Assembly: GCA_963555995.3 (NCBI GenBank)
Contig: OY821641.1
Span: 2,688,001-2,752,000, forward strand
From: Vicinamibacteria bacterium
GTDB taxonomy: Bacteria > Acidobacteriota > Vicinamibacteria > Marinacidobacterales > Marinacidobacteraceae
Direction: 5' to 3'
Length of the DNA stretch: 64,000 nt
The translations under genes were made by a program, and so were the position numbers. Shown piece by piece: positions 9,833 through 62,206 of this stretch. The notes under the pieces are model-generated. The model was not told the DNA's origin. It saw nothing but the letters and a program-made list of their open reading frames with translations, and did not search any database. The stretch's first letter is position 1. Each line of letters begins with the position of its first letter.

Positions 9833-10011
9833 CAGCCTGTGGATAAAGTGACGTGAGCACCGAGAACGGCGAGGCGCCCGGCTGACAAGGCGCGTGAGGG
9901 AGGAATACCGAGCGTATTCCGACCGAAACGCAACGATGAGGGCCGCGTAGCGGCCTGGTTCAGCCGGGATGCATCGCCGTTCGAATGCCGCGTGACTTTG
10001 TTCACAGGCTG
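9833..10011 (+). mobile_element. 179-bp MITE, copy 1 (between ftsA and ftsZ)
   Basis: Termini CAGCCTGTGGATAAA...TTTGTTCACAGGCTG; shared core CTGACAAGGCGCG-GGAATAC/GTATTCC-GACCGAAACGCAAC. Confidence 0.88.
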
Positions 10012-10028
10012 TTGACAGGGCAAAGTGG

Positions 10029-11315
10029 TCATTGGGCTTTCCGGAGGTGACCGGCGACCCGCCGCAGACCGTCACCGATGGCGCGGCCCATTTCCGAGAG
10101 CGCGGAGCGGGATCTGGCCGCGGGGGTGCGCCGGCGGTGCAGGAGGCCGTAGCGGCAGAGGCCCATGGCGCAGGCGAAGTCCGGGCGCGTCGCCAGATCG
10201 CGCCGGCCGGTCAGGTCCTGGGGACCGCGACTCTCGGCGTAGGCGCCGAAGACCAGGCGCGCCACGTCGCTCAATCCGTCGAGGTTCGCTCCGCCTCCGG
10301 TGATCACCACGGCGCCGGGGATCTCCCGGAGCACGCGGCCCAACTGGTCGCGAATCCTGGTGAGATCGCTCTCCGCCCGCCGCTGCAGGACATCGGCGAG
10401 CAGTCGGCGGCGCCACTGCTTGGGGTAGCCGCCCCCCGAGACCTGGATTTCGAAGTAGTCGTCCTCGGGGACCTTTTCCACGAGCGCGACGCCGTAACGC
10501 CGCTTGGCCTGCTCGGCGTGGGCGTGGGAGGTCTTGAGGCCGAGCGCGAGGTCCCGCGTGTACGCCCGGCCGCCGCTCGGCATCAGGTCCGAATGCCGCA
10601 TCGCTCCCTGCCGGAACACCGCGATCTCGGTCGTCATGGCGCCGACGTCGAGCAGGACGACGCCGTCCTGCCGCTCCTCCCCGGTAAGGACGGCGTGGCC
10701 GGCGGCCAGCGGGGCGGCCACCAGGCGCTCGATGCGGATGCCGGCGCCGTTCACCGCCTCTTCGATGCGGTGCAGGGTGTCGCGGGGACAGCTCACCAGG
10801 TGGACGTGGGATTCGATCTTCTCGCCCGTCCAGCCCGTCGGGTTCTCGGTGGAATCGAGGTCGTCCACCCAGAACTCCTGGGGGAGCGCGTGCAGCAGCT
10901 CGTACGGGGGGCGGAGCCACGCCGTCCCGCCGTCCCTCGGCACCGCCGCCATGACGGCCCGGTAGACATCGGACTCGGCGATGCGGTGGTCCGGCGTCAG
11001 GATCGAGATCGCGCCGGACGAGTTGATGCTGCGGCGGGTGCGGCTGCCCACCGAGACGAAGGCCGACCCCACCTCCACGCCGGCGGTCTGCTCGACTTCC
11101 TCGACCGCCTGCCGGACCGCTTCCGTGACCCCTCCCAGCCGTACGACCTCGCCGTGCTGGACCGAATTCCGCGACTCCGCCTGTCCGACCGCGAGCACCT
11201 CGATCTCCATCCCCTCCTCCGTTCCGGAGAGAGCCTCGGGCCCGCGGGCGAGCACCGTGCGCACGTGATCGGATCCGATGTCAATGCCGCAGAGCAGATC
11301 CGCCGGCCTCGTCAT
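10029..11315 (-). CDS. ftsA: Cell division protein FtsA
   Basis: GIDIGS, LLDVGAMTTEIAVF, VITGGGANLDG actin-like ATPase motifs; dcw position. Confidence 0.95.
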   Translation of the reverse strand: MTRPADLLCGIDIGSDHVRTVLARGPEALSGTEEGMEIEVLAVGQAESRNSVQHGEVVRLGGVTEAVRQAVEEVEQTAGVEVGSAFVSVGSRTRRSINSSGAISILTPDHRIAESDVYRAVMAAVPRDGGTAWLRPPYELLHALPQEFWVDDLDSTENPTGWTGEKIESHVHLVSCPRDTLHRIEEAVNGAGIRIERLVAAPLAAGHAVLTGEERQDGVVLLDVGAMTTEIAVFRQGAMRHSDLMPSGGRAYTRDLALGLKTSHAHAEQAKRRYGVALVEKVPEDDYFEIQVSGGGYPKQWRRRLLADVLQRRAESDLTRIRDQLGRVLREIPGAVVITGGGANLDGLSDVARLVFGAYAESRGPQDLTGRRDLATRPDFACAMGLCRYGLLHRRRTPAARSRSALSEMGRAIGDGLRRVAGHLRKAQ

Positions 11316-12241
11316 TCCGTCGCTCCTCCCACGGGATTGGAGGGCGCCTCTTCGGGGACCGCCGCCGGTTCGGTGCGGACGAGAAACCGGTCGGGAACCC
11401 GGGCGTCAACCCGCGAGAGCCCCGGCCAGCGCTCGACCAGGTCGGGCAGGACCCCGGCGACGCGCTCCAGCCCGTCCAGGAAGCCGCGTTCGCTCAACAG
11501 GATCGGGAGCGCCGGCGACCGGAGGATCACCTCCACGCGGTAGGGACCGCCGCTCACGTCCAGCTCGGAAACGAGCCGGTCCAGTTCGGGCCGGCGGGAC
11601 AGCGCCGCCGCCAACCGGCCGGCAAGCGCCGCCCGCCTTTCGAAGTCGGCGTGACTGCGGTCGGCGCCCCGGATCAGGACCAGGTCCACCGCGCCGGCCG
11701 ACGCGAAATCGTTGGCCGTGGCGGGTCCGAGGACCGTTCCGTCGCCCGCGAGGGCGGCCGGAGGCTGCCAGTCGAGGAGCGCCACGGTCCGCTTTTCCTC
11801 GACGTCCACCAGGATGACGCCGGGCAGCAGCCGCTCCACGGTGACCCGCTCGGGGATTCCCGTCGCGAGCAGCCGCTCGCGAATGGCCGCCGCATCGGCG
11901 AGCAACCCGGTGGGGCCGAGGCTCCCGGCGTCCGGGAACCGGGTCAGATGCACCGCTCCGCGGAGCCGCAGTTCCGCCGGGCCGGTCTCGGCCGCCGCGC
12001 CGGCGGGCTCGGCGGCGGTCATCCTCCCGACCACGATTCCGGCGGCGAGCGCCAGACCCACCGACCCAACCGCGATGCGGGCCACCAGCCGCGGCAGCGG
12101 GGTTCTGGGCGCGGGCGGCGCCACCAGCCGCGGCTCGCGTTCCGCCGCCCGGCGCCGGGCGTCCGGGTCGGCATGCGGCGGGAGCTCGACGGGCATCGAA
12201 TTGGTCCGGCCCGCCGGCCGCCGATCACGCCACCCGTTCAC
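11312..12241 (-). CDS. ftsQ: Cell division protein FtsQ/DivIB-like
   Basis: Single TM helix, POTRA-like VERLLPGVILVDVEE, C-terminal VDARVPDRFLVR; lies between murC and ftsA; start uncertain. Confidence 0.8.
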   Translation of the reverse strand: MNGWRDRRPAGRTNSMPVELPPHADPDARRRAAEREPRLVAPPAPRTPLPRLVARIAVGSVGLALAAGIVVGRMTAAEPAGAAAETGPAELRLRGAVHLTRFPDAGSLGPTGLLADAAAIRERLLATGIPERVTVERLLPGVILVDVEEKRTVALLDWQPPAALAGDGTVLGPATANDFASAGAVDLVLIRGADRSHADFERRAALAGRLAAALSRRPELDRLVSELDVSGGPYRVEVILRSPALPILLSERGFLDGLERVAGVLPDLVERWPGLSRVDARVPDRFLVRTEPAAVPEEAPSNPVGGATE

Positions 12242-13655
12242 GGAGCGCCTCCTGCAGCAGGTCGGGCAACTGGGTGATGCTTCCCGCCCCGAGCGTCAGA
12301 ACCACGTCGCCGGCGCCAAGCTCGGGGGCCAACCGATCAGCCACCTCCTCGAGGCGGCCCAGGAAACGGACATCGGGATGCCCCGCACCCCGGATTCCCC
12401 GGGCCAGCTCCTCGCCGTCCACTCCGGGAATCGGCTTTTCGCCCGCCGGGTAGATGTCCGTGACCACCACGACGTCCGCACCAGCGAAGGCGCGGCAGAA
12501 GTCCTCGTGCAGGTCCCGCACCCGGCTGTAGCGGTGCGGCTGGAAGACCGCCACCGTGCGGGCGCCGAAAGCCGCCCGCGCCGCCTCGAGCGTCTCCCGG
12601 ATCTCGCTCGGGTGGTGGGCGTAGTCGTCCACGATCCGCACCCCGGCCGGGGTACCGCGCCGTTGGAACCGGCGCTCGACCCCGGTGAAGGCCTCGAGAC
12701 CCTTGCGGATCGCCGGAGTCCCCAGGCCGAACTCGAGCCCGACGGCGGCGGCGGCGAGGCTGTTCAGGACCGCGGTGCGGCCCGGCTGCTTCAGATGGAC
12801 GGCGCCGGCCAGCCCGCCCCGGATCCGCAGCTCGTAACGGGTCCCGTCCTCGGCGATGGAGATCTTTTCGGCCGAAATCTCGGCGTCCGGAGAAAGGCCG
12901 TAGGTGATGACCCGCCGGCGGACGCGCGGCAGCAGCGAACGCACGTTGTCGCAGTCAGTGCAGACGATCGCGCCCCCGTAGAACGGAGTCATGTTGATGA
13001 AACGAAGGAAGGAATCGAGGAGGTCCTCCATCCCTTCGTAGGCGTCGAGATGCTCGCGGTCAATCCCCGTGACCACCGCCAGCACCGGCAGCAGCCGCAG
13101 GAAGGTGCGGTCGGACTCGTCGGCCTCCGCCACCAGGATCTCGGACTTCCCGACCCGCGCTCCGCCGCCGATCGTCGCGACCCGGCCCCCGATCACCGTC
13201 GTCGGATCGAGGCCCGCGTGATCGAGCAGCACGGAGGTCATCGAAGTCGTCGTGGTCTTGCCGTGCGACCCCGCCACCGCCACCGCAAACTTCATCCGCA
13301 TCAGCTCGGCGAGCATTTCCGCGCGCGGGATGATGGGGAGCTGCCGCTCGCGGGCGGCGACGACCTCGGGGTTGTCCGGGGGCACCGCCGAGGAGACGAC
13401 GACCACGTCGGCGGAGTCCACCTGATTGGCGACGTGTCCCTCGAACACGATCCCACCGAGTTCGGCCAGTCGCCGCGCGTTCGCGCCGGTGCGGAGATCG
13501 GAACCGCTGACCCGGTAGCCGAGATTCAGCAGTACCTCGGCAATGCCGCTCATCCCCACTCCGCCGATGCCGACGAAGTGCACGCGGGTGCGGGTGGAAA
13601 AGAGCAGACCCCGCGTCCCGGACGACGAAAGCAGGCTCTGGGCGAAGCCGTTCAC
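12225..13655 (-). CDS. murC: UDP-N-acetylmuramate--L-alanine ligase
   Basis: HFVGIGGVGMSGIA, GSHGKTTTT, EADESD, DDYAHHP, FQPHRYSR. Confidence 0.97.
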   Translation of the reverse strand: MNGFAQSLLSSSGTRGLLFSTRTRVHFVGIGGVGMSGIAEVLLNLGYRVSGSDLRTGANARRLAELGGIVFEGHVANQVDSADVVVVSSAVPPDNPEVVAARERQLPIIPRAEMLAELMRMKFAVAVAGSHGKTTTTSMTSVLLDHAGLDPTTVIGGRVATIGGGARVGKSEILVAEADESDRTFLRLLPVLAVVTGIDREHLDAYEGMEDLLDSFLRFINMTPFYGGAIVCTDCDNVRSLLPRVRRRVITYGLSPDAEISAEKISIAEDGTRYELRIRGGLAGAVHLKQPGRTAVLNSLAAAAVGLEFGLGTPAIRKGLEAFTGVERRFQRRGTPAGVRIVDDYAHHPSEIRETLEAARAAFGARTVAVFQPHRYSRVRDLHEDFCRAFAGADVVVVTDIYPAGEKPIPGVDGEELARGIRGAGHPDVRFLGRLEEVADRLAPELGAGDVVLTLGAGSITQLPDLLQEALRERVA

Positions 13656-14731
13656 GGCGCCCCCCCGGCGAGTGCGTGCAGCCTCGCCGCCAACCGCTCC
13701 GCGCAGTGTTCGTGCACGAGCTGCTCCCCGGCCCGAGCCATGTTCGCGCGGAGCTCCGGATCGTCCGCGAGGGTGGCGAGCGCGGTCGCGAACTCCGCTC
13801 CCGAAGACGCTTCGTCCACGGCCACCGCGGCGCCGGCGCGGGCCAGCGCCGCCGCGTTCTGCCGCTGGTGCGCGCCCGCGACCGGCGCGGGCACCAGAAT
13901 CCCTGGCCGTCCGGCGGCGGCCAGTTCGGCGCAGGTGATGGCGCCGGCGCGGCCCACCACCACGTCCGCCGCCTCCATGGCCCGCGGCATGTCGTCGAGA
14001 TACGCCACCACGCGAGCGTCCACCCCGGCGTCGCGATACGCGTCGCGAATCGGGTCCTCGTCGGCGGGGCCCGTCTGATGGGTGATCCGCAGTCGGCCGG
14101 GGCGCGCGCGGAGCGCGGGCAGCGAATCCACCACCAGCCGATTCAGCCGCGAGGCCCCCTGGCTGCCCCCGGTGACCAGCACCGACACGGCGCCGTTGGC
14201 GCCCGGCGGCGGCGCCATCCGGAAGAACTCCGGCCGCACCGGGATTCCGGCAACCACCGTGCGGCGCCGGAGGCGCCGGCGCGTCGCCTCCCAGGCCACC
14301 GCGACCTCGCTCGCGAACGGCGAGCTCCAGCGGGTCGCGAAACCGGGCTCCGCGTTGGGTTCCAGAATCAGCGAAGGAATCCCCAGGAGGCGGGCGGCGA
14401 ACACCGCGACCCCGGACACGGAACCCCCGGTCCCGAAAACCACGTCCGGACGAATCTCCCGGAGCCGCCGCCGCATCGCGGCGACCGAACGCAGGAGGCG
14501 GGCGGAGGTCCGGGGCAGCGCGAACGGCGAGCGGCCGCGGACGGGGGGCACCTCGACGAGTTCCAGCCCGAATCCGTGCTCCGGCACGAGGCGGTTCTCC
14601 AGCCCCCGGGCGGTGCCCACGAACCGGATCTCGGCGGGTCCCCGCTCGGCGAAGGCGCGGGCGACCGCGAGGCCCGGATAGATGTGCCCGCCGCTGCCGG
14701 CCGCCGCGACCAGGAGTCGGGTACCCACCAT
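13652..14731 (-). CDS. murG: Lipid II GlcNAc transferase MurG
   Basis: AAGSGGHIYPG, GGSQGA, GRAGAIT, HQRQNA. Confidence 0.95.
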   Translation of the reverse strand: MVGTRLLVAAAGSGGHIYPGLAVARAFAERGPAEIRFVGTARGLENRLVPEHGFGLELVEVPPVRGRSPFALPRTSARLLRSVAAMRRRLREIRPDVVFGTGGSVSGVAVFAARLLGIPSLILEPNAEPGFATRWSSPFASEVAVAWEATRRRLRRRTVVAGIPVRPEFFRMAPPPGANGAVSVLVTGGSQGASRLNRLVVDSLPALRARPGRLRITHQTGPADEDPIRDAYRDAGVDARVVAYLDDMPRAMEAADVVVGRAGAITCAELAAAGRPGILVPAPVAGAHQRQNAAALARAGAAVAVDEASSGAEFATALATLADDPELRANMARAGEQLVHEHCAERLAARLHALAGGAP

Positions 14732-15816
14732 CACGGCACCCTCTGGGAGACCGACAGCACCAGCCCCGCCGCCAGCAGGGTGGTGAGCAGCGAGGAGCCG
14801 CCGGCGGAAACGAACGGGAGCGGCAGCCCCGTGGTGGGAACGATCGCGGTCGCGACGCTGAAGTTCAGGAACGCCTGCAGGGCGATGGTCAGCGTGGCCC
14901 CCGCTCCGAGCAGCATGCCGAAGCGATCGGGAGCCCGGCTCGAGACGAGGAGTCCCCGGACGGTGAACAGGAGGAAGAAGACCACCACCAGCCCCGCGCC
15001 GATGAAGCCCAGTTCCTCGCCGACCACCGAGAAGACGAAGTCGGAGTGCGGCTCGGGAAGGTAGAGCAGTTTCTGGCGGCTGGCGGCGAAGCCGACTCCG
15101 GTGACGCCCCCGCTGCCGAGCGCGATGAGCGACTGGCTCAACTGGAAACCGTCGCCGAGCGGGTCGGCGAAGGGATCGAGGAAGGTGAGGATGCGGGCGA
15201 TCCGGTAGTCCGCGGCCAGCACCCCGGCGGCAAACAGCGGAACCGCCACCGCCGCCAGGCCCGCCAGGTGCCCGAGGCGCGCGCCGCCCAGGAAGATCAC
15301 CGATACGCCGACCAGCACCAGCAGGGTGGCGGTGCCCAGATCGGGCTGGAGGTAGATGAGCGCCGCGAGAAAACCCGTAGCGACCAGCGGCAACACCAGG
15401 GTGCGGAAGGAATCGGCGCCCCGCATCGCCAGCAGATGGGCAAGCGCCACCACCAGCCCGAGCCTCGCCGGCTCGGAGGGCTGCAGGGTGAACCCGGCGA
15501 ACTGCACCCAGCGGTGCACCCCGTTGATGGCCGGAGAGAGCAGGGCGGCGAAGAGCGACACGATGACCGCCCCGTACACCGCCCACACCACGGCCGGCCG
15601 GTTCAGCAACCGGTAGTCCGAACGGGCCACGGCGATCATCGCCAGACAGCCGAGCGCCGCCCAGACCGCCTGGCGCTCCAGGAAGTACGACGGACTGCGG
15701 TCGCTGGCGTCCGCCACGATGGCGGAGGCGCTGTAGAGCATGACCAGCCCGAAGACGAGGAGCCCGAGCGTCAGGAGGAACAGGAGCCGGTCGGGGGCCA
15801 TGCGCCGTCCCTTCAT
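14731..15816 (-). CDS. ftsW: Peptidoglycan polymerase FtsW (SEDS)
   Basis: Multi-TM; MLYSAS, LQPSE, LQPDLGT, LPEPHSDF, GLPLPFVSAGGSS. Confidence 0.95.
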   Translation of the reverse strand: MKGRRMAPDRLLFLLTLGLLVFGLVMLYSASAIVADASDRSPSYFLERQAVWAALGCLAMIAVARSDYRLLNRPAVVWAVYGAVIVSLFAALLSPAINGVHRWVQFAGFTLQPSEPARLGLVVALAHLLAMRGADSFRTLVLPLVATGFLAALIYLQPDLGTATLLVLVGVSVIFLGGARLGHLAGLAAVAVPLFAAGVLAADYRIARILTFLDPFADPLGDGFQLSQSLIALGSGGVTGVGFAASRQKLLYLPEPHSDFVFSVVGEELGFIGAGLVVVFFLLFTVRGLLVSSRAPDRFGMLLGAGATLTIALQAFLNFSVATAIVPTTGLPLPFVSAGGSSLLTTLLAAGLVLSVSQRVP

Positions 15817-25367: not shown

Positions 25368-25380
25368 GACGCCCCCTCTC

Positions 25381-26882: not shown

Positions 26883-27917
26883 ATGAGCCCGCACGCGGCG
26901 AAAGCAACGCTTCCGAGCCCCGAGCCGGTCTCTGACGCTCTGGGGGCCTTCGTCCCGAAGCCCTTCCGGCATCTTCGGGACCCGTCGCGGGACCTGCCGC
27001 GGATCGCCAAGGACGTACGGGCGATGGCCGCCATCGAATCCGCGGTCGCCCAGGTTCCCACGAAGCACCGTCTCCTGCTGGGTGATGCGCGAGGCGCCGA
27101 CCTCCCGGCCGAATCGGTGCATCTGGTGCTCACCTCCCCCCCGTACTGGACCCTCAAGGAATACCGCCGTTCGGAGGGGCAACTGGGCTGGATCGAGGAC
27201 TACGAGGCCTTTCTGGATCAACTGGACCAGGTGTGGCGGCGGTGCCAGACCGCCCTGGTTCCGGGTGGACGATTGATCTGCGTCGTCGGCGATGTGTGCC
27301 TATCGCGGCGCAAGAACCAAGGCCGGCACACCGTGGTACCGCTCCACGCGTCCATTCAGGAACGGTGTCGTTCTCTCGGATTCGACAACCTCGCGCCGAT
27401 CCTCTGGCACAAGATCGCGAACGCGGCGCACGAGGTGAATCGGGGTTCGGGTGGTTTCCTGGGGAAGCCGTACGAGCCGAACGCCGTAATCAAGAACGAC
27501 ATCGAGTTCATCCTCATGCAGCGGAAGGCCGGCGGCTATCGGAAGCCCACCCTCTCGGCGCGGACGCTCAGCGTTCTCGGCGAGGCGCGCTTCCGTCAAT
27601 CGTTCCGGCAGGTGTGGACCGACATCGCGGGTGCCTCAACCCGGGACCACCCCGCGCCCTATCCGGTCACGCTCGCCGAGCGCCTCATCCGAATGTTCAG
27701 TTTCGTCGGCGACACTGTGCTCGATCCCTTTACCGGCACGGCCTCCACCCAGATCGCCGCCTCTCGATCCGGCCGCAATTCGGTCGGGATCGAAGTGGAC
27801 ACCGTGTACTTCGAGAGAGCGTTCTTCCGTTTGCGGAATGAGACAAACCGGCTCCTGAGCACCGCCGAGGTCACCCGTGGTGACCTCCGTGCCGTAGCGA
27901 CGAATCCCGAAAGTTAG
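26883..27917 (+). CDS. Site-specific DNA methyltransferase, beta class (N4-C/N6-A)
   Basis: TSPPY catalytic motif precedes HPAPYP and VLDPFTGTAST SAM-binding motif. Confidence 0.92.
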   Translation: MSPHAAKATLPSPEPVSDALGAFVPKPFRHLRDPSRDLPRIAKDVRAMAAIESAVAQVPTKHRLLLGDARGADLPAESVHLVLTSPPYWTLKEYRRSEGQLGWIEDYEAFLDQLDQVWRRCQTALVPGGRLICVVGDVCLSRRKNQGRHTVVPLHASIQERCRSLGFDNLAPILWHKIANAAHEVNRGSGGFLGKPYEPNAVIKNDIEFILMQRKAGGYRKPTLSARTLSVLGEARFRQSFRQVWTDIAGASTRDHPAPYPVTLAERLIRMFSFVGDTVLDPFTGTASTQIAASRSGRNSVGIEVDTVYFERAFFRLRNETNRLLSTAEVTRGDLRAVATNPES

Positions 27918-29432
27918 CAGCCTGTGGTGAAACTCCGCTGGGCGGGATTGAGTGCGCTGGCGGGGCTTCGTAGAATTTTCGCATGGCTATGGGACGTCGC
28001 GGGACGCGGCGGCAAGGGTTGTGGATTGCGACCGGGGCGCTGCCTCGGAGCAAGGGGGATCCGTTTTACGAGCGTCTGAATAAGGTTCTCGGGGGGGATC
28101 GCTTTGACGAGTATGTGGAGGAGCGGTGTGAGCGTCACTACGCGCCGGACGGTCGTCCTGGGCTTGCGCCTGGGCGGTATTTCCGCTGCCTTCTGATCGG
28201 GTATTTCGAGGGTCTGGACTCGGAGCGATTGATCGCGTGGCGGGTGAACGACTCCCGCAGCCTGTTGCGGTTCCTGGGTTACGGGCCGGCGGACAGCGGG
28301 CCGGATCATTCGACGATTTCGCGGACGCGCCGTCGGGTGAGTGAGGAGACGCACGCGGAGGTGTTCGGCTGGGTTGTGGAGCGGGTGAAGCGAGCGGGGC
28401 TTCTGCGGGGGGATGCGCTGGGGGTGGATACGACGACGCTGATGGCGAACGCCTCGATGCGGAAGATCGTGCGACGGGACAGCGGGGAGGGCTACCGGGA
28501 GTATGTGAGGAGGTTGATGGAGGAGTCGGGGATCGAGGCTCCGACGTTGGAGGAGTTGGCGCGCTACGACCGGACGCGGAAGAAGCGGTTGTCGAACGGC
28601 GACTGGGCGCATCCGGTGGACCCCGAGGCCCGCATCAGTCGGCTGAAGGATGGCCGGACGCGGATGGGGTACAAGGCGGAGCACGCCGTGGACCTGGCGA
28701 GTGGCGCGATCGCGGCGGTGACGGTCCAACCCGGGGACCGCGGGGACACCAAGACCCTGCCGCAGACCCTGGACGAAGCGGAGAAGCATGTGGGGGCCGG
28801 GGCGGCGGAGGCTGAAACGCCGGGGAAGCCAACGGCTTGCCGGAAGGAGGGGAAGCCCCGGTCCTTGGTGTGTGACAAGGGGTATCACAGCGATGCGGTG
28901 ATCGAGCAGACGCGGGAGCGTGGTTACCGTTCGTACATCGCGGAGCCGAAGCGCGGGCGTCGTCGCTGGCGGGGTCGAGAGTCCCTGCGTCGCGCGACAT
29001 ACGGCAACCGTCGGCGGGTTCGTGGAAATCGCGGCACCCGGCTGCGAAGACGGCGCCACGAACTGACGGAGCGTTCCTTCGCGCACTGCTACGAGACCGG
29101 CGGGATGCGCCGGGTGTGGTTGCGGGGCAGTGGGAACATTCGAAAACGTCTGCTGATCCACACCGCTGGCTTCAATCTGTCGCTGCTCATGCGGCGCCTG
29201 ACCGGGATCGGGAAACCAAAGGGCCTCCAGAACCGGAACATGGAGGCCATGCAGCGCCACTTGTCGCCCGGACGGGCCTCCCTGTGGCGCATCGTGCACC
29301 TCTGGCGCCGTTGTCCGACCGCGATCCTCGTTCTCTTGACCGAACCCCCGTCCTGGCCGTGTCTCCACGAGCAGAAGCTCGACGCTCATTCCCGACGGAA
29401 TCCGCCGTGAACGCCACTTTCACCACAGGCTG
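27918..29432 (+). mobile_element. Intact 1515-bp IS (IS1182/IS5-like)
   Basis: Perfect 15-bp TIR CAGCCTGTGGTGAAA / TTTCACCACAGGCTG; TTAG duplicated at 27914-27917 and 29433-29436; single transposase ORF. Confidence 0.93.
27983..29410 (+). CDS. DDE transposase (DUF772 + DDE, IS1182/IS5-like)
   Basis: SERLIAW, PDHSTISR, VDTT...ANAS, DPEA...GYK, DKGY, ERSFAH. Confidence 0.92.
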   Translation: MAMGRRGTRRQGLWIATGALPRSKGDPFYERLNKVLGGDRFDEYVEERCERHYAPDGRPGLAPGRYFRCLLIGYFEGLDSERLIAWRVNDSRSLLRFLGYGPADSGPDHSTISRTRRRVSEETHAEVFGWVVERVKRAGLLRGDALGVDTTTLMANASMRKIVRRDSGEGYREYVRRLMEESGIEAPTLEELARYDRTRKKRLSNGDWAHPVDPEARISRLKDGRTRMGYKAEHAVDLASGAIAAVTVQPGDRGDTKTLPQTLDEAEKHVGAGAAEAETPGKPTACRKEGKPRSLVCDKGYHSDAVIEQTRERGYRSYIAEPKRGRRRWRGRESLRRATYGNRRRVRGNRGTRLRRRRHELTERSFAHCYETGGMRRVWLRGSGNIRKRLLIHTAGFNLSLLMRRLTGIGKPKGLQNRNMEAMQRHLSPGRASLWRIVHLWRRCPTAILVLLTEPPSWPCLHEQKLDAHSRRNPP

Positions 29433-29443: not shown

Positions 29444-30049
29444 GTGATTTCGTGGCGCGACGCCGTGCGCGACCTGTATCGGATCGCCGTGACGGAGGGC
29501 AAATCGACGTCCACCGTCCGCCTTGATTCACTGGCCGAATTCTGTGTCCAGGAACTGAGCGGACGTGGCCTGCGAGATGTCCAGAAGGAGGTCGAGATCC
29601 CCGGGGCCGGGAGAACGAAGAAATGGGACGTGGCGTGGGAGTACGACGGGAAGCACCGGTTGGGAATCTCGCTCAAGTCGCTGCTGAAGAACCTCGGAGG
29701 AACCGTTCCGAACCGGATTGATGATTTGATCGGTGAAGTCGCGAACGCGCAGTTGCATTCGCCTGAGATCGCGATCGGCTACGTAATGATCTTCAACGTC
29801 GCCGAGGACCAGTTTTCTCCGAAGCATGATTCGACATGGTTCGAACTTCTGGAGAGCCGTCTGAACTCGCTATCGGGCCGACGCTCGCCGTCGTGGACAA
29901 CGGGAACGGTGGAGGATTTCGTTCTGGTCAAGGTTGACTTCAGTCAGCGTGCCTCCATCTTGTCCACCTCGAAATCGTTCGATGCGTTCTTCGACACCTT
30001 GGCGGCACAGGTTGTGGCAAGGAATCCCAATGCCATGCGGAACCGTTGA
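29444..30049 (+). CDS. Putative type II restriction endonuclease (PD-(D/E)xK; XhoI/PaeR7I-like)
   Basis: KKWDV...ISLKS...NRIDDLIGE pattern; only 7 bp from the MTase stop if the IS is removed. Family assignment tentative. Confidence 0.65.
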   Translation: MISWRDAVRDLYRIAVTEGKSTSTVRLDSLAEFCVQELSGRGLRDVQKEVEIPGAGRTKKWDVAWEYDGKHRLGISLKSLLKNLGGTVPNRIDDLIGEVANAQLHSPEIAIGYVMIFNVAEDQFSPKHDSTWFELLESRLNSLSGRRSPSWTTGTVEDFVLVKVDFSQRASILSTSKSFDAFFDTLAAQVVARNPNAMRNR

Positions 30050-30140
30050 GTCGGAAGCTACAGCGCCCTAGGACATCCAGCGCAGTTCCTCACATGCTAG
30101 GCTGGCCGACTGATCGACGATAACGTCCTCCTTGCACAAC

Positions 30141-30430
30141 TAGTGTCATGTCATACGTGATGTGTCGTATATCGTGATAGTCTCCACGTCCGTCCGGCAC
30201 GGGCGAGGAGGCCACCATGAAGCGTTACGTGGTGACATTGGAGAAACAGGAGCGGGAGGCACTCGAGGCGATCACGCGCAAGGGCTCACATCAATCGCAG
30301 AAGGTGATCAACGCTCTGATCCTGCTCAACTGCGACGAGGGGGAGTACAACCCGCACCGCATGCGTGGGGAGGTGATCGCCGAGGTGCTGCGCATCAGTG
30401 CGCGCAAGGTGGACCGGGTGAAGCGGCGCC
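30141..30430 (+). pseudogene. IS630-family remnant (left end plus N-terminal HTH, truncated)
   Basis: TA-GTGTCATGTCA end; ORF from 30217 MKRYVVTLEKQEREAL...IAEVLRISARKVDRVKRR typical of IS630 N-termini; broken at about 30430. Confidence 0.75.
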
Positions 30431-31021
30431 AATACTCCCGATAACCCTCCCCCGTGTCCCGACGCACGATCCCCCGCATCGAGGCGTTCGCCAGCAACGT
30501 CGTCCCGTCCACCCGCGTCTTGCCCCGCAGCAACCCCGCCTCCTCCAAACGACGCAGCACCCACACGAGAACCTCCCCGTGCGCCTCCGCCGATATCCGA
30601 CGCCGCGTCTTCGACAACGTCGAATGATCCGGACACCGATCCGTCAGCGCCAAACCCAGGAACTTCCGCAGACTCAGCGAGTCCGCAAGACGCCACGCTA
30701 TCTGACGCTCCGAATCGCACCCCTCGAAATCCCACCAACAGCAACCGGAAATAGTGCCCCGGCGCCAACCCCGGACGACCCAGCCGCGGGGCGTAGAACT
30801 CCCGGCAGATCCCTTCCGCATACGCGTCGAAGCCCGCCTCGTCCAGCAGACCGTTCAACCGTTCGTAGAACGGATCGCCCTCACTCCGGGGCAGCTGAGA
30901 AGGCAATATCCACAACCGCCCCTGCTGTCCAACACTGCGGTGTCCCATGGCCATGCCCGCCATCGTAGGACAGCCCCAAAGTGACATCAATGGCCCCGGC
31001 CACGACTTTGGCCACAGGCCG
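30430..31021 (-). pseudogene. Truncated, frameshifted paralog of the IS1182/IS5-like element
   Basis: Left TIR variant CGGCCTGTGGCCAAA flanked by CTAG; two frames give GDPFYERLN...GRPGLAPG and SERQIAW...PDHSTLSK...ANASM; 1-bp deletion near 30733. Confidence 0.88.
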
Positions 31022-45555: not shown

Positions 45556-45588
45556 GAGGTGTCTGCCCGGAGAAACGCGGGATTCTAG

Positions 45589-45767
45589 CAGCCTGTGGTG
45601 AAACCCCCGTGAGCGCCGAGAGCGGCGAGGCGCCTCGCTGACAAGGCGCGTGAGGGAGGAATACCGGGTGTATTCCGACCGAAACGCAACGCAGAGCGCC
45701 TCGCAGAGGCGTGGTTCAGCGAGGATGCATCGCCGCTCGAACGCCGCGAGGGTTTTGCCACAGGCTG
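45589..45767 (+). mobile_element. 179-bp MITE, copy 2 (between rho and rplU)
   Basis: Left end identical to the IS TIR CAGCCTGTGGTGAAA; CTAG duplicated on both flanks. Confidence 0.92.
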
Positions 45768-47825: not shown

Positions 47826-47962
47826 GACGACCTCCTGCCAGCCATCCGGCCGACTATCGGTCGGCATTGTGGCGCATCCCGGCCGGCCGGGCGAACCCAA
47901 CCGCCCGGAACGGCCGCTGGTGAAACCCAGGCGGCCCGGTTGCTGCGAAAATGCAGTTCCGC

Positions 47963-48100
47963 AGGTTGGCCAACAGCCGTGACGGCGCCGCCGGCCTGGA
48001 ACGCCGGTCTCCAGACCGGCACCCGCGGCGCTCCGCGCCGCGCACGGCGAAACCCATCCACCCTCACGGCGGCTCGGAGCGCCGACCTCGAGCCCGCTGA
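47963..48100 (+). repeat. REP-like unit with conserved flank, plus a degenerate second unit
   Basis: GGAACGCCGGTCTCCAGACCGGCAC at 47998; flank GGTTGGCCAACAGCCGTGA is the reverse complement of the flank at about 6817-6835. Confidence 0.75.
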
Positions 48101-48217
48101 GCGAACACACCCGGTATTCCTCCCTCGCGCGCCCTTCCCGGCGCGCGCCTCGCCGCCCTCGGCACGCAACCGGATTCCACCACCGGCCGTTGGCGGTCAG
48201 TATGCTCCCCGCCGTCC

Positions 48218-49582: not shown

Positions 49583-49591
49583 CGCCGCCGG

Positions 49592-49888
49592 TCAAGCCAC
49601 CGGCGTCAACAACACGCGGCTGCGGTCCCGGATTCGGGGATTCAGCGGATCCGCCCTGCCCTCCCTCGGGTCCGGCAGCCGCTGGGCGCGGAAGCGCTTG
49701 TCCGCCGCGAAGTACTCGGGCTCCCGCATGGGAGGCAGCGGCCGCGACGGATCGCGGACGTAGATTCCGTCCTCAGCCTCGCGCATCGCCCCGACGAACA
49801 GGACTTCCCGCCACTTCCGGAGGGGAACGCTGAAGGCTCCCCGGTCTCCGACCGGTCTCAGGTCGTGGAAGGGGCCGCGGTCGGACAT
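49592..49888 (-). CDS. Hypothetical protein
   Basis: 98-aa ORF filling the hisS-trmJ gap, divergent from trmJ. Confidence 0.55.
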   Translation of the reverse strand: MSDRGPFHDLRPVGDRGAFSVPLRKWREVLFVGAMREAEDGIYVRDPSRPLPPMREPEYFAADKRFRAQRLPDPREGRADPLNPRIRDRSRVLLTPVA

Positions 49889-49928
49889 GGGGAAACGTTC
49901 CGTCGCCTTCTAGGATAGGCAGTCGCTC

Positions 49929-50669: not shown

Positions 50670-50670
50670 G

Positions 50671-50818
50671 TCAGAGGCTCCCGCGGAACAGCCGGATCAC
50701 CCGGTCCCAGGCGGGGAGCGCCGGTCTTCAGACCGGCACCGCCGCCCGGAGGGCGGCGAAAGCACGTCCTGACCGGGCGGGAACGCGCGGTCCGAACGGA
50801 ACGGAGAGCGCCGCGGAA
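50671..50818. repeat. Duplicated 3' end of the dienelactone hydrolase gene plus a REP-like unit
   Basis: 50671-50713 matches 50819-50861 at 39/43 nt; REP GGAGCGCCGGTCTTCAGACCGGCAC near 50715. Confidence 0.85.
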
Positions 50819-51487: not shown

Positions 51488-51519
51488 CGTGATCCTCCTC
51501 CGGGGGGCCGCGATGTTAA

Positions 51520-51698
51520 CAGCCGGTGGCAAAACCCACGCGGCGTTCGAGCGGCGATGCATCCCGCCGGAACCGCGCCGCTTCGCGACGCTCATCGTTG
51601 CGTTTCGGTCGGAATACACCCGGTATTCCTCCCTCACGCGCCTTGTCAGTCGGGCGCCTCGCCGCTCTCGGCGCTCACGTGGGTTTCACCACCGGCTG
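51520..51698 (-). mobile_element. 179-bp MITE, copy 3
   Basis: CAGCCGGTGGCAAAA...TTTCACCACCGGCTG; flanks TTAA/TTAG. Confidence 0.9.
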
Positions 51699-51702
51699 TT
51701 AG

Positions 51703-51881
51703 CAGCCGGTGCCAATACCCACGCGGCGTTCGACGGGCGATGCATCCCGCCGGAACCGCGCCTCTACGAGGCGCTTATCGTTGCGTTTCGGTCGGAATAC
51801 ACCCGGGATTCCTCCCTCACGAGCCTTGTCAGCCGGGCGCCTCGCCCGTCTCGGCGCTCACGTGGGTGTCACCACCGGCTG
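51703..51881 (-). mobile_element. 179-bp MITE, copy 4 (tandem with copy 3, separated by TTAG)
   Basis: Same core and length, more diverged. Confidence 0.88.
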
Positions 51882-51984
51882 TTGCCAGCGCGGGTCCTGC
51901 GGGCCGCGATTTTCCTTCCGGAATGCACCCGTCCTTTGTTATCTTCGGCCGGCTACCGCGCGGGGAGCGAAAGGAAGGTCGCCG

Positions 51985-53685: not shown

Positions 53686-53698
53686 CCGCGGCAGGGTC

Positions 53699-55024: not shown

Positions 55025-55047
55025 CCGCCGTTCAGGAGAAGACGAAG

Positions 55048-56877: not shown

Positions 56878-56884
56878 TGGCGCT

Positions 56885-57180
56885 CCCGGCTTGGAACGCC
56901 GGCTTCAGCCGGCACCGCGCAACGCTCGTCCTCCGGATGACACCCCCGGCTTGGAACGCCGGTCTCCTGACCGGCACGCGCGGGGCTCCGCAACGCGCAC
57001 GGCGCAACCCTCCTCCCCCCGCATGGCGCTCCCGGCCTGGAACGCCGGTCTCCTGACCGGCACGCGCGGGGCTCCGCAACGCGCACGGCGCAACCCTCCT
57101 CCCCCCGCATGGCGCCCCCGGCTTGGAACGCCGGTCTCCAGACCGGCACGCGCGGGGCTCCGCAACGCGCACGTCGCAAC
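56885..57180 (+). repeat. Four tandem REP-like units (last three at 86-bp period)
   Basis: GGAACGCCGG at 56893, 56953, 57039, 57125; units 2-4 nearly identical. Confidence 0.9.
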
Positions 57181-57214
57181 GCCAATCCCAACCGATGACC
57201 CATCTTCCCCGCCC

Positions 57215-58099
57215 ATGAAACTCCCAACCACCCTCCTCACCCTCAGCCTCCTCCTCGCCGCCACCGCCCCCGCCCAGGACACCCCCATGCCCGAAATGGT
57301 GGAAATCAAGGGCGGCGTCTTCTTCATGGGATCCCAGTCCGGCCCACCCCAGGAAAAGCCGATCCACGCCGTCCAGGTCTCGGACTTCTGGATCTCCAAG
57401 TACGAGATCACCCACGCCGAGTTCGCCGCGTTCGTCGAGGACACCGGATACGAGACCGAGGCGGAGACGTTCGGCACCGGCCGGATCCTCCGGGACGGCC
57501 GCTTCGTCTACTCCCCCGGCTTCACCTGGAAGGAACCCCACGGACCAGGCTCGACGGTCACGGAACCCGACCGGTACCCCGTGGTCCAGGTGAGCTGGAA
57601 CGACGGCGTCGCCTACACCCGCTGGCTCAGCCGGCAGACCGGCCAGGCCTACCGGCTACCCACCGAGGCCGAGTGGGAGTACGCCTGCCGCGGCGGCACG
57701 CAGACGACCTACTGGTGGGGCGACGACTTCGACCAGACGAACGTGAACACCGCGGGCACCTGGCGTCCGGGAGGCGCTCCCTGGCCTCGGGACGAGCACA
57801 CCCTCATCACCCCCATCGACCGCTACCCGGCGAACCCCTTCGGGCTCCACGACATGCTCGGCAACAACTGGGAATGGGTCCAGGACTACTCCTCCGCCGA
57901 CTACTACGCCGCCCAGGTGCGGCGGCCGGAGTCACCGGTGGTGGATCCCCAGGGACCCGCCTCCGGCAACGAGCGCGTCCTCCGCGGCGGAGGCTGGAAC
58001 GTCAACCCGGACCGGGCGACCTGCTCCTTCCGCTTCCTCGCCGACCCACCGGTGTACCGCAGCGACCACGTCAGCCTCCGGGTGGTCCGGAATCCCTAA
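57215..58099 (+). CDS. Secreted FGE-sulfatase (SUMF1-like) domain protein
   Basis: F.MGS, PVVQVSWND, RLPTEAEWEYA, NPFGLHDMLGN.WEW, RVLRGG. Confidence 0.9.
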   Translation: MKLPTTLLTLSLLLAATAPAQDTPMPEMVEIKGGVFFMGSQSGPPQEKPIHAVQVSDFWISKYEITHAEFAAFVEDTGYETEAETFGTGRILRDGRFVYSPGFTWKEPHGPGSTVTEPDRYPVVQVSWNDGVAYTRWLSRQTGQAYRLPTEAEWEYACRGGTQTTYWWGDDFDQTNVNTAGTWRPGGAPWPRDEHTLITPIDRYPANPFGLHDMLGNNWEWVQDYSSADYYAAQVRRPESPVVDPQGPASGNERVLRGGGWNVNPDRATCSFRFLADPPVYRSDHVSLRVVRNP

Positions 58100-58158
58100 C
58101 CGGGACTCATCGGCAGCAGTTCGACGGCCGAAACCGGCTGCGAAAACGGACACTTAGC

Positions 58159-58185
58159 TGCACGTTTTGCATAGCAAAATGTGCA
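58159..58185. terminator. AT-rich hairpin between convergent genes
   Basis: TGCACGTTTTGC-ATA-GCAAAATGTGCA immediately after the SDR stop; no clear U-tract. Confidence 0.4.
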
Positions 58186-58971
58186 TTAGCGCGCGCAGGT
58201 GAGGTGGCGGCCGCCGTCCACCGGGATCGTGACCCCGGTGCAGAAGCTCGCGTCGTCCGACAGCAGGAACAGCGCCAGGTCGGCCACCTCCTCCGGCGTG
58301 CCGATGCGGCCGATCGGGTGCGTGGTCTTGCTGTGCTCCACGAAGGCCGCGTAGCGGTCGTCGTCGAGCCCCCCGGCGAGGTGAAGCTCGGTCCGCGTGA
58401 CGCCGGGGTTCACGGAGTTGATGCGCACCCCCTTGGCGGCGAGTTCGAGGGCCGAGCAGCGCGTCAACTGGTCGAGGGCGGACTTGCTCGAGTTGTAGGC
58501 CAGCACTCCGGGGAACGAGCGGATGCCGTTGACGCTGGAGACGTTGACGATGCTGCCCTTCCGCTCCAGCAGGTGCGGCACCGAGAGCCGCATCAGGTCG
58601 AAGACGGCCTCCACGTTCAGGGCGAACATCCGCTGCCAGGCGTCGAGTCCGGTGTTTTCGATGGTGCCGAAAGCAATCACCCCGGCGGAGTTCACGAGGT
58701 GGTCCAGCCCCCCGAAGCGCGCGACGGTCTCCTCCACCGCCCGTGACCGGAACGCCGCTTCGGTCACATCCCCCGCCAGCGGCAGGGCCGCGCCGCCGGC
58801 CACTTCGATCTCGCGGGCCAGCGCCCCGAGACGCTCGGGCCGGCGGGCGGTGACGGTGACCCGCGCGCCCTCTCCGCCGAGCGCCAGCGCGGTGGCCCGT
58901 CCGATCCCGCTGGAGGCTCCGGTCACGATGGCGACCCGGTTCTGAAAGCGTTTCTGCGCGCGATTCGGCAC
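58186..58971 (-). CDS. Short-chain dehydrogenase/reductase
   Basis: TGASSGIG, VNSAG, YNSSK, VDGG; GTG start with GAGGAG RBS. Confidence 0.93.
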   Translation of the reverse strand: MPNRAQKRFQNRVAIVTGASSGIGRATALALGGEGARVTVTARRPERLGALAREIEVAGGAALPLAGDVTEAAFRSRAVEETVARFGGLDHLVNSAGVIAFGTIENTGLDAWQRMFALNVEAVFDLMRLSVPHLLERKGSIVNVSSVNGIRSFPGVLAYNSSKSALDQLTRCSALELAAKGVRINSVNPGVTRTELHLAGGLDDDRYAAFVEHSKTTHPIGRIGTPEEVADLALFLLSDDASFCTGVTIPVDGGRHLTCAR

Positions 58972-59051
58972 GTCGTTCTCCTCTGCCTGGCAGCGGCGGC
59001 GGCGCGCCGCCCGCTGGACATCCCCAAACCCCGGGCGGGAGACTATCGCCC

Positions 59052-60032
59052 GTGCCCGAATTCCCCGATGTCGAGCTGTACCGCTCCGCGATCGGGGGCC
59101 GGATCGTGGGGACGCGCCTCGCGGCGTTTCAGATCGCCTCCCCGCACCTCCTCGCCTCGGTCGAGACGCCTCCCGAGACGCTGATCGGACGGGTCGCAAC
59201 CGGCGTCCGCCGGATCGGCAAGCAGCTCGTCATGGAGTTCGAGGAGGAGCTCTTCTGCGCCGTCCACCTCGCGGTGGCGGGGCGGTTCCACTGGACCGCG
59301 ATTTCCGGTTCGGGGAACCCGGTGCGGCTGTCCCCGCACGGCAATCTGGCCGTCTGGAGTTTCGAGTCGGAAGCCGGGAGCGGCGGAAAGCTGCGGCTCG
59401 TCGAGCGGAGCCCGAAGAAGCGGGCTTCCATCCGGGTGGGCCAGGGTCCGGGGCCGCTCCGGGCGCTCGACCGCGGCGGGCTGGAGATTCCCGGTTCCAC
59501 CCGCGAAGAGTTCGGCGCCCGGCTGGCCGGGCTGACGAACACCATCAAGCGGGCGCTCACCGAACCGGCCCGTTTCGCCGGAGTCGGCAACGCCTACTCG
59601 GACGAGATCCTCCACCGGGCCCGGCTCTCGCCCTCGAAACGGGCCGGAAGCCTCACGTCCGAGGAAACCGGCCGTCTCCACGCCGCTGCGGAGTCCGTCC
59701 TGACCGAGTGGGCCGCGCGGCTCCAGGAAGAGTGCGGCAGCGCCTTTCCCACCGGCGTCACCGCCTTCCGCGAGGGGATGGCGGTGCACGGCCGCTTCGG
59801 CCAGCCCTGTCCGGACTGCGGATCTCCGGTGCAGCGGGTACGCCGCGCCGAGAACGAGTTCAACTACTGCGCGACCTGCCAGACCGGCGGCCGTCTCCTG
59901 GCGGATCGGGCGATGTCCCGGCTGCTCCGGAAGAAGTGGCCGCGAACGCTCAAGGCGGCCGAGGAGCGACGGCGGCGGCTCGGGACCCCGGGATCCGATT
60001 CTTCATCTCCGGACGATCGCAGCCAGACGTGA
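59052..60032 (+). CDS. Fpg/Nei family DNA glycosylase
   Basis: MPEFPDV, RIGK, GVGNAYSDEILH, CPDC...CATCQ zinc finger. Confidence 0.92.
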   Translation: MPEFPDVELYRSAIGGRIVGTRLAAFQIASPHLLASVETPPETLIGRVATGVRRIGKQLVMEFEEELFCAVHLAVAGRFHWTAISGSGNPVRLSPHGNLAVWSFESEAGSGGKLRLVERSPKKRASIRVGQGPGPLRALDRGGLEIPGSTREEFGARLAGLTNTIKRALTEPARFAGVGNAYSDEILHRARLSPSKRAGSLTSEETGRLHAAAESVLTEWAARLQEECGSAFPTGVTAFREGMAVHGRFGQPCPDCGSPVQRVRRAENEFNYCATCQTGGRLLADRAMSRLLRKKWPRTLKAAEERRRRLGTPGSDSSSPDDRSQT

Positions 60033-60097
60033 ATCCGGCGCGGCGGGACGGTGTGCAGTGACACACGTCAGTGCGGTGAGGGCGGCTGGAGTCGCGA

Positions 60098-60147
60098 CAC
60101 GCGCGGCGCGGAGCGCCGCGCGTGCCGGTCTGGAGACCGGCGTTCCC
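60098..60147 (-). repeat. Single REP-like unit next to MITE copy 5
   Basis: GTGCCGGTCTGGAGACCGGCGTTCC with the GCGCGGCGCGGAGCGCCGCGC hairpin. Confidence 0.8.
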
Positions 60148-60165
60148 GGCCGCCGCGCCGCCTAG

Positions 60166-60344
60166 CAGCCTGTGGACAAAGTCACGCGGCGTTCGGCGGG
60201 CGATGCATCCCGGCTGAACCGCGCCGCTTTGCGGCGCTCTGCGTTGCGTTTCGGTCGAAATACACCCGGTATTCCTCCCTCACGCGCCTTGTCAGCCGGG
60301 CGCCTCGCCCGCCTCGGCGCTCACGTCACTTTATCCACAGGCTG
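60166..60344 (-). mobile_element. 179-bp MITE, copy 5
   Basis: CAGCCTGTGGACAAA...TTTATCCACAGGCTG; CTAG on both flanks, the right one containing the neighbouring gene's TAG. Confidence 0.92.
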
Positions 60345-61106
60345 CTAGGCGATGCCCGGCTCGGGGCGCACGCCCATCAGGCGACCGGTGCGGCCGATGG
60401 CCGCTCCCATGACCGTCATGCCCCAGAAATAGCCGGGAATGGCGCCGATCAGGCAGAGAATGACGGTCAGGTCGGCGATGATCGAGAACAGGATCAGGCT
60501 CAGCAGCAGGACGATGTAGTTGCCGAAGTTGGCCCGAATCAGGCCGACGTTCTCGTTCAGCCGGAAGGCCGCGGTGAACCGGCCGGTCGCCGCCAGTTGC
60601 ACGATCCCGGCCGGGATGAGCGCCTTGGCGAGCAGCGCCGCGAACACGAGGAAGAAAATGGAGGCGAGGCTCCCGATCACCGAGGTCGCCACCACCGCCG
60701 GAGAACCCATGGACTGTCCGATCAGCGCCCAGAAGACGCCGATGGCCACGAGAACCAGGCCCATCACGACCGCCGCCAGGGTGTAGCCCGCGATCACCCC
60801 GAACACCTTGATCCCGTCCAGCAGCACCCCTCCGAAGTCATCCCAGTCGGCCATCGGGTGCTCGTCGCCGCGCAGGGCGCCCCGGGCGGTGCGCACGCCG
60901 AAGCCGAGCAGGGCCAGCAGGCCCAGGCCGAACAGCGGGATGAGCACCACCATGAGGCTGCCGATCACGAACTTGGAGAGCGCCTTCGGGTCCCGGAACG
61001 CAAAGGTGAACAGACCGCCCAGGTCGAATCGCTCCGGGGCCGGCGGCAGGGGTGGCGGCGGGGGCGGCGGCTCGTCCGTCGGCAGTACTGGCTGTTCTTC
61101 GGTCAT
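60345..61106 (-). CDS. DUF4013-like membrane protein
   Basis: FAFRDP...KFVIG...LIP..G..ALLGF......MADWDD; multi-TM. Confidence 0.78.
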   Translation of the reverse strand: MTEEQPVLPTDEPPPPPPPLPPAPERFDLGGLFTFAFRDPKALSKFVIGSLMVVLIPLFGLGLLALLGFGVRTARGALRGDEHPMADWDDFGGVLLDGIKVFGVIAGYTLAAVVMGLVLVAIGVFWALIGQSMGSPAVVATSVIGSLASIFFLVFAALLAKALIPAGIVQLAATGRFTAAFRLNENVGLIRANFGNYIVLLLSLILFSIIADLTVILCLIGAIPGYFWGMTVMGAAIGRTGRLMGVRPEPGIA

Positions 61107-61136
61107 GCGATGTCCCTCTGCAATCCGTAACGGATT

Positions 61137-61979
61137 TCAGTCCGCCGCGGTTTCCACCGCTTCCAGCTCGACGCCCATGATGCGGCCGGCGTGACCGATC
61201 GCGGCGCCGGACGCCGTCCAGGTCCAGAAGAGGCCCGGCACCAGACCCACCAGGAAGAGCGACAGGCTGAGGTTGGCGAGGATCGCGAAGAGCACGAGGA
61301 TCAGCAGCAGGAGGATGTAGGTCCCCGGGTGGGCGCGGATCCGCCTCAGGTTCCGGATCCAGCCGAGGGCCGGGCGGATCCGTCCGGTAGCGGCGAGTTG
61401 CATCAGCCCTGCCGGCAGCAGCGCCTTGGCGAACCCGGCCAGCAGCACCACGAACCAGCCGGTGACGACCAGGCCGAAGACCGCCGCCGCTCCCATCAGC
61501 CCGGCTCCGGCAACCGGGACCGCGACCATCTCGGGCAGGATCTCGCCGAAGACGTCGGGGGCGACCCCGCTGTCCAGCGCGGCGCCCGCCACCGCGGCGA
61601 AGATCCCGCCGGCAATCCCGACCGCCACCAGACCGATCAGGGCGCCCACCAGGAAGAGCCCGCCCCCAACGACGGCCACCACGGCGGCATGGACGAGGAC
61701 GACCGCCACCACCCGCAACCCGTCGGCGAGCTGGCTGGCCACCGCATCCCAGCCGGGCATGGGGTGCTCTTCTCCCCCTAGCGCGCCGCGCGCCGTCTGG
61801 ACCGCGAAACCGAGCAGCCACAGCAGGCCGAACCCGAGGAACGGGATCAGCAGGACCGCCAGGCAGCCGATCATCCACTTGCGGAACGCCCTTGGATCGC
61901 GGAACGCGAAACCGAGCAGGAAACCGAGGTCAATCCGCGCTGGCGGCGCGGCGGCAGCGGTGGTCGCTTCGTCGTTCAT
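61137..61979 (-). CDS. DUF4013-like membrane protein (tandem paralog)
   Basis: Collinear with 60345-61106 (FAFRDP, TARGAL, KAL.PAG..QLAATGR, AAIG..GR.MGV). Confidence 0.78.
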   Translation of the reverse strand: MNDEATTAAAAPPARIDLGFLLGFAFRDPRAFRKWMIGCLAVLLIPFLGFGLLWLLGFAVQTARGALGGEEHPMPGWDAVASQLADGLRVVAVVLVHAAVVAVVGGGLFLVGALIGLVAVGIAGGIFAAVAGAALDSGVAPDVFGEILPEMVAVPVAGAGLMGAAAVFGLVVTGWFVVLLAGFAKALLPAGLMQLAATGRIRPALGWIRNLRRIRAHPGTYILLLLILVLFAILANLSLSLFLVGLVPGLFWTWTASGAAIGHAGRIMGVELEAVETAAD

Positions 61980-62010
61980 GGTGGCCCCCGGAGAGGCCGC
62001 TGACCGTGAA

Positions 62011-62206
62011 CAGTCGGTGGTGGAACTGGCGTGAGCGCCAGCCCCCCACCGGGAGAACTGGTGTCCGCTGGGCCTCGCTGACAAGGCGCGCAAGGGAGGA
62101 ATACCAAGCGTATTCCGACCGAAGCGCAACGATGAGCGCGCCGAAGCGAGCGGTTCAGCGGGGATTCAGCGGGCGTTGAATGCCGCGTCAGTTCCATCAC
62201 AGACTG
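62011..62206 (+). mobile_element. 196-bp diverged MITE, copy 6
   Basis: Termini CAGTCGGTGGTGGAA...TTCCATCACAGACTG; same CTGACAAGGCGCG/GGAATAC-GTATTCC/GCAACG core. Confidence 0.82.

Follow-up and report, generated by a model that had tools for sequence, protein, structure and literature searches.

A gene-less IS1182-type repeat of a Vicinamibacteria bacterium keeps the fold of one strand and contains a core found between unrelated ends

The stretch of DNA analysed here (64,000 nucleotides from a Vicinamibacteria bacterium of the Acidobacteriota; GenBank assembly GCA_963555995.3, contig OY821641.1, positions 2,688,001 to 2,752,000 of the forward strand; hereafter the window) contains six copies of a short repeat together with an IS1182-family insertion sequence (IS) with the same ends, of which the repeat is almost certainly a gene-less MITE (a transposable element of miniature size with inverted repeats). 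As a sequence-only reading of the window had reported, five copies are 179 bp long and one is 196 bp. Copy 1 (9833–10011, plus strand) lies between ftsA and ftsZ, both on the minus strand, with flanks GTAA and TTGA. Copy 2 (45589–45767, plus strand) lies between rho and rplU with CTAG duplicated, as it also is around copy 5 (60166–60344, minus strand), while copies 3 (51520–51698) and 4 (51703–51881), both on the minus strand, stand in tandem with one 4-mer shared between them. Copy 6 (62011–62206, plus strand) owes its 196 bp to a recurrent 18-bp insert near 62042–62060. Beyond that reading, we found the 4-bp flanks, the same-ended IS and a seventh, decayed copy (47911–48189, minus strand) interrupted by part of an element containing repetitive extragenic palindromic (REP) sequences. 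In copy 1 the left terminal repeat (9833–9852, plus strand), an IS1182-type end, pairs with 9992–10011; the shared core (9886–9938, plus strand) comprises CAAGGCG, an apical arm (tandem GA/GA and a GGAATAC/GTATTCC hairpin) and CAACGATG, and the variable side hairpin (9940–9956, plus strand) has a C-GTA-G triloop at 9947–9949. A profile of the six window copies gave 128 matches, 81 of them full length, in the 3.8-Mb source genome (G000; other G numbers are comparison genomes), and 34 of 41 related genomes, the source included, have matches to it.

The IS (27918–29432, plus strand, 1515 bp) has terminal repeats as in the MITE, a duplicated TTAG target and an open transposase gene (27983–29410, plus strand, 475 aa) with DUF772 and DDE_Tnp_1 domains, and is the likely helper. 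The best NCBIfam model for the transposase is that of IS1182 (NF033551), at a score below the cut-off (113 bits over a 388-aa part, cut-off 270), with IS5-like models lower; residues D149, D298 and E360/E363 are invariant in seven sequences and presumably represent the catalytic acidic residues. Three identical copies of the IS are present in the genome, each with a perfect 4-bp duplication. The repeat has the features of a MITE (179 bp, no transposase gene, terminal repeats of 17–20 bp, 81 full dispersed copies), and its ends follow those of the IS, with the first 15 nt exact in 26 of the 81 copies and a mean identity of 87% over 17 nt. A BLAST search with the IS finds no MITE interior, and this combination of IS-matching ends with an interior lacking similarity to the IS makes the repeat a type II MITE, as the term is used in PMC10969869. 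Both sites with housekeeping neighbours described above are empty in relatives: between rho and rplU, 14 of 14 relatives have a single 4-mer (CTAG, TTAG or CTAA) where CTAG stands twice around copy 2 (a net gain of 183 bp with CTAG doubled), and the ftsA–ftsZ site is likewise empty in 14 of 14, with a separate insertion of its own nearby in G013. In G018 the local IS lies in AATT and the MITEs do likewise (52 AATT-flanked ends, compared with none in the source genome), indicating that MITE target choice tracks the local IS. A TA-only duplication of IS630 type was rejected for the family, as the IS doubles 4 bp, including TTAC, CTAT, ATAG and AATT. Both MITE arms are left-end-like, or both right-end-like, in 74 of the 81 copies and mixed in two (by a crude rule), a pattern that suggests that one IS end was copied across to the opposite arm, and not that an IS lost its interior by deletion. 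Movement in trans by the 475-aa IS1182-type transposase appears likely from these sequence comparisons. For a third subfamily, with TGTGGTGTCCCGC ends, no helper IS was found in the source genome. A plain internal-deletion derivative of a related IS (342 bp, single copy; contig C1 of the source genome, 3647893–3648234) provides a natural control for the 81-copy structured MITE.

Folding of the CTGACAAGG strand of the MITE gives a rod of −112.6 kcal/mol (z −12.5), and that of the opposite strand gives −93.1 kcal/mol (z −8.6). The sequence-only reading had described compensatory stems and conserved head motifs, both of which are present in the copies, and had proposed that the interior is kept as the fold of one particular strand beyond the needs of the terminal repeats, a proposal borne out in a much larger set. 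Among 256 full copies from the source genome and 60 stretches from four relatives, 150 are 179 bp long and 137 of these are distinct; counting only the latter, the paired cells comprise 7844 Watson-Crick, 566 G·T, 45 A·C and 313 other pairs across the five genomes. Covariation persists after correction for the tree, with 51 of 57 interior double changes ending in a Watson-Crick pair, compared with 0–2 of 4–14 for slid-partner controls, and the unpaired bases of the head are 97–100% fixed. The one-strand pairing bias is strongest in the MITE variants that spread: pair types seen once number 11 for G·T and 14 for A·C, among types shared by at least four copies the numbers are 22 and 2 (p = 6e-4), and changes from Watson-Crick to G·T relative to A·C stand at 42:3 on internal and 112:32 on terminal branches of the tree (p = 0.026).

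The junctions of the MITE also differ from those of its IS. After removal of 69 tandem or nested copies 187 remained, for which the outer flank bases served to infer the target. At targets that are not palindromic, duplication is perfect in 17 of 21 cases for the IS, compared with 12 of 130 for the MITE and 3 of 24 for its young copies, and in 105 of the 130 the two bases next to each MITE end pair as an extension of the rod. CTAA, which puts A·C at the rod base, is perfectly duplicated in 1 of 27 cases, and TTAG, which puts G·T there, in 7 of 16 (p = 0.002). As CTAA and TTAG are the same site on the duplex, this difference points to the hairpin of one strand acting at the DNA level.

A common core of approximately 52 nt, CAAGGCG…CAACGNNG, was found inside hairpin elements with unrelated ends in three phyla. 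The source genome has a subfamily of six with the MITE interior but other ends, genomes of the same order have the core between at least three further end types, and within the phylum a covariance model of the core matches 28 of 151 genomes, where the core lies in hairpin elements whose ends are many and unrelated. For two end types, the genome concerned (G032 or G171) itself contains IS630-family (PF13358) elements with matching ends; DDE_3 was detected in three of five genomes examined and matched only the D-type and G171 ends, and no IS was found for end types C and E. The CAAGG…AACGNNG stretch is 52–55 nt long in 30 of 36 cases, a length that the model may favour, and 73–74 nt in four. In 35 diverse sequences the closing helices of the core are 85% paired, compared with 28–48% in slid controls, and 16 of 18 pairs have changed on both sides. 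A model built without the MITE family finds all six window copies on the correct strand. Model R1 found nothing at E ≤ 0.1 in four of five outside genomes. In the class of G041 a plain core pattern reached at least 30 hits in 14 of 301 genomes (pattern counts alone; highest control 11, counted by eye), and in the third phylum 7–25 hits, compared with none in the control, in 5 of 81 genomes. The backwards-pattern control understates the background in GC-rich coding DNA, for which reason the analysis relied solely on counts of at least 30 or on hairpins that were listed; the listed hits of G317, G410 and G471 look like chance. Some core-bearing hairpin elements carry a second core on the opposite strand. 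Double-headed elements of approximately 270–277 bp (L249, L252, L253, L258, L269 and L288) have a core-like arm on each strand and a short linker hairpin between them. A literature search, with subscription papers and supplementary repeat catalogues largely outside it, found no description of a core common to MITEs that belong to different IS families. Nothing about the class of element is out of the ordinary, but its portable one-strand core and its junction signature are unusual.

The plain core pattern also occurs at two places in Escherichia coli K-12, one of them a 127-bp element between hsdR and hsdM that by eye fits the primers for the repetitive intergenic consensus of enterobacteria (ERIC) given in PMC3696847. 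This copy resembles the MITE in that CAAGGCG…CAACGCAG occupies the corresponding internal loop of its rod and that one strand folds more strongly, but differs in its 127-bp length, other ends, TA flanks, shorter outer stem and 75-nt core. It has the exact 15-base motif in the same helix context, yet receives no covariance-model score, and the pattern was chosen with ERIC in mind; in four runs neither model R1 nor model R2 scored ERIC. Across 11 ungapped of the 16 K-12 copies, conservation of the motif does not exceed that of the remainder (0.80 versus 0.86), and core elements of intermediate form with ERIC-like apical arms exist. Homology between the MITE core and the centre of ERIC seems, by a small margin of judgement, the better supposition. 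The MITE itself is not an ERIC or intergenic repeat unit (IRU, RU-1), a family with a 127-bp consensus, TA ends and primer sites, as its length and ends are different.

Whether the fold works as DNA or as RNA is addressed by the side hairpin, whose loop reads C-GNA-G in 111 of 137 copies with all four bases present at N; its middle base changed 36 times on the tree, compared with 16 and 8 for its neighbours, and GNA linker hairpins recur in other lineages. Mini-hairpins of sequence GCGNAGC are very stable in DNA, and the RNA four-base-loop form tested much less so, according to PMC13037366. We consider that the interior fold probably acts as DNA during propagation.

The reading that we favour, with moderate confidence, is a MITE that uses an IS1182-type helper and passes through a folded single-stranded form of the CTGACAAGG DNA strand. 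Its observed basis consists of IS-like ends and target 4-mers, empty orthologous sites, covariation, a one-strand G·T bias and a core found among other ends. The CTGACAAGG strand would become briefly unpaired, in a cruciform or in a replication or transcription bubble, and fold on itself as a rod, which would rebuild a double-stranded end from one strand and bring both termini together. The invariant CAAGGC/AACGNNG loop, approximately 53 nt from the end, might be bound by a widespread host protein, making the substrate better used or copied, a step that we find plausible but short of favoured. The IS1182-type transposase would move the element in trans, the innermost flank bases then either coming along from the donor or being templated by the opposite arm, and new end types could originate when the sequence of one IS end is copied across to that arm.

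Several points weigh against this reading. Standard DDE integration needs two duplex ends, a requirement that one folded strand fails to supply, and every mechanistic step is one that we infer. The excess of G·T over A·C is already present on terminal branches (112:32), private changes being unbiased in the singleton count only; the pair list was derived from the fold of the same sequences, which favours G·T; and the tree counts are rough because copies recombine. The junction targets were inferred from outer flank bases, and three empty-site checks gave one agreement (C in the empty site where the filled site has T), one ambiguous result and one failure to align. GNA loops are not universal, a stricter pattern being found in 146 of 225 distinct full-length copies of all lengths, while G019 and G020 have other loops and end types C–E have no side hairpin. 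The RNA-versus-DNA figure in PMC13037366 refers to the four-base loop form only.

An unlikely alternative is that the fold is selected as RNA, a transcript of the element attaching to the transposase or to a host protein, or adjusting nearby mRNAs in the manner of ERIC and Correia RNAs. The sequence-only reading had proposed a mobile RNA that it could not assign to a known family, an identity that is not supported, as the repeat belongs to the MITEs and has an IS1182-family transposon matching it, and the indirect evidence leans towards folded DNA. RNA would accommodate the G·U pairs and the tandem GA as well, one strand folds more strongly under RNA parameters, GNRA-type loops occur in the insert of long forms, and ERIC alters mRNA stability depending on its orientation (PMC2229807). 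Against such a role, of 53 co-directional sites the folding strand coincides with the mRNA at 20 and with its template at 33 (p = 0.098, no significant bias; gene calls for neighbour and orientation counts came from our own script), and it shows no replichore bias. The C-GNA-G triloops also argue against RNA, an RNA fold could not rewrite flanking DNA bases, and there is no promoter-like site over copy 2. No Rfam family matches the MITE at gathering or E-value thresholds, ribozymes included. A reverse transcriptase (RVT_1, PF00078) was found in none of five genomes (completeness 91–95% where given), which also argues against a retro-element. Resemblances to the hammerhead, group II intron domain V, the kink-turn and attC were dropped on inspecting the fold, in which CTGA is paired. 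Integron attC sites have RYYYAAC/GTTRRRY cores, an unpaired spacer and one orientation behind cassettes, whereas the terminal stem of the MITE is fully paired and its copies lie in both orientations beside housekeeping genes.

It is also improbable that the covariation is a by-product of resident hairpins whose arms are kept matched by arm-to-arm copying or repair, the interior having no role in movement. Such copying would account for flank bases that match the hairpin although they are not inheritable, for arms homogenised to one IS end and for 51 double changes on single branches. It would not account for unpaired loop bases that stay 97–100% fixed while paired ones vary, for the persistence of bulges and G·T pairs, for the rarity of A·C among variants that spread, or for a core whose length, in different phyla and between different ends, stays at 52–55 nt in 30 of 36 cases. 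Least probable is a separate core-recognising enzyme (for instance a RAYT-like HUH nuclease or a host recombinase) that moves the folded strand with IS-like ends as borrowed stems. In its favour, MITE and IS junctions differ, the core is constant where the ends are not, and a single Y1/RAYT-like gene lies among REP arrays in the genome. Against it, the ends correspond to the IS families resident alongside, the targets chosen are those of the local IS (AATT in G018), and that gene is flanked by REP hairpins rather than by the MITE.

Extending the folded-strand reading, we tentatively suggest a portable single-stranded DNA module, also forming the centre of ERIC, that would let gene-less elements hijack unrelated DDE transposases (IS1182, IS630 and probably IS5) through a strand folded as a rod, a conserved loop that would recruit a universal host factor, and a non-IS insertion route leaving hairpin-matched flanks. 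The inside of a MITE is commonly regarded as filler, or as an RNA hairpin that affects nearby mRNAs; in the present elements it is the interior that stays constant across phyla, and the ends can be exchanged. DDE transposases are not expected to handle a structure derived from a single strand, which they would do if the folded strand is the substrate.

Further observations concern the insertion sites and variants of the MITE. Copy 2 inserted into a TAGAAT (window 45575–45590) on the minus strand upstream of rplU, which looks like a −10 box and is largely conserved in relatives, and many other copies adjoin TAA or TAG stop codons. Copies are nested in other copies at fixed interior sites (contig C1 of the source genome, 278029, 861651, 2890302 and 2494623; position 127 in relatives). 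Approximately ten long forms have a 90–100 nt two-hairpin module inserted at position 151, with two module types and one tandem case (C1 2147485, 3472822, 3086533, 3763425 and others). The 18-bp insert occurs, in either orientation and at times twice over, at seven or more MITE positions (lengths 197, 215, 233, 251 and 269) and also within REP-like hairpins (L091–L150; e.g. C1 648995 and 711288). Its sequence is that of the left end joined to the right end of a REP-containing element of approximately 300 bp with non-inverted ends, of which the source genome has 35 left ends, and is likely a minimal form or scar of that element. A Y1/RAYT-like gene between long REP arrays (C1 751165–751821, L011) is a candidate mover of the REP-containing element, and REP-like repeats lie in the window at 56930–57187, 25451, 32937, 47975 and 60086, including an 86-bp three-copy array. 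Near the IS, a 5′ fragment of a second IS1182-like element (30432–31021, minus strand), with a left end similar to that of the window IS, interrupts an IS630-like relic (HTH_29, weak) at 30140–31021. The IS is flanked by a DNA methyltransferase gene (26883–27917) and a low-GC open reading frame (approximately 29460–30049), possibly a restriction-modification pair split by the insertion.

Several known systems bear comparison with the MITE. REPINs are hairpin elements moved by RAYT and thought to travel as single-stranded DNA. The MITE differs in having IS-type terminal repeats and 4-bp duplications (imperfect at most non-palindromic targets) and is not a member of the REPIN/RAYT system, as it has no REP doublet and does not stand beside a RAYT gene; it is itself a target for insertion of the REP-containing element found in this genome. 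MITEPye1 of Paracoccus yeei, a type II MITE of the IS1182 family with 4-bp direct repeats, is similarly gene-less and intergenic with IS1182-like terminal repeats and a long predicted stem-loop, as described in PMC11578231. Compared with that description, the MITE here reaches approximately 80–100 copies per genome, has an interior unrelated to its IS and common to several transposase families, shows a one-strand bias and leaves most non-palindromic targets imperfectly duplicated. The bcr1 repeat of the Bacillus cereus group (PMC3184786) is likewise a mobile repeat, of approximately 155 bp, with direct-repeat flanks and fold-keeping compensatory changes, but is described with 5-bp repeats and a cruciform-like shape and is read as RNA structure. 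IS1272, also of the IS1182 family, resembles the present case in its unusual junctions at inverted repeats but leaves no duplication according to PMC5678879, whereas the window IS makes a clean 4-bp duplication from which only its MITE departs. Hairpin-matched as opposed to duplicated flanks offer a sequence-level readout separating two insertion routes, and the portable core and the junctions are testable in this genome, where the MITE is accompanied by a cognate IS that looks intact and recently copied, which ERIC has lacked for a direct test.

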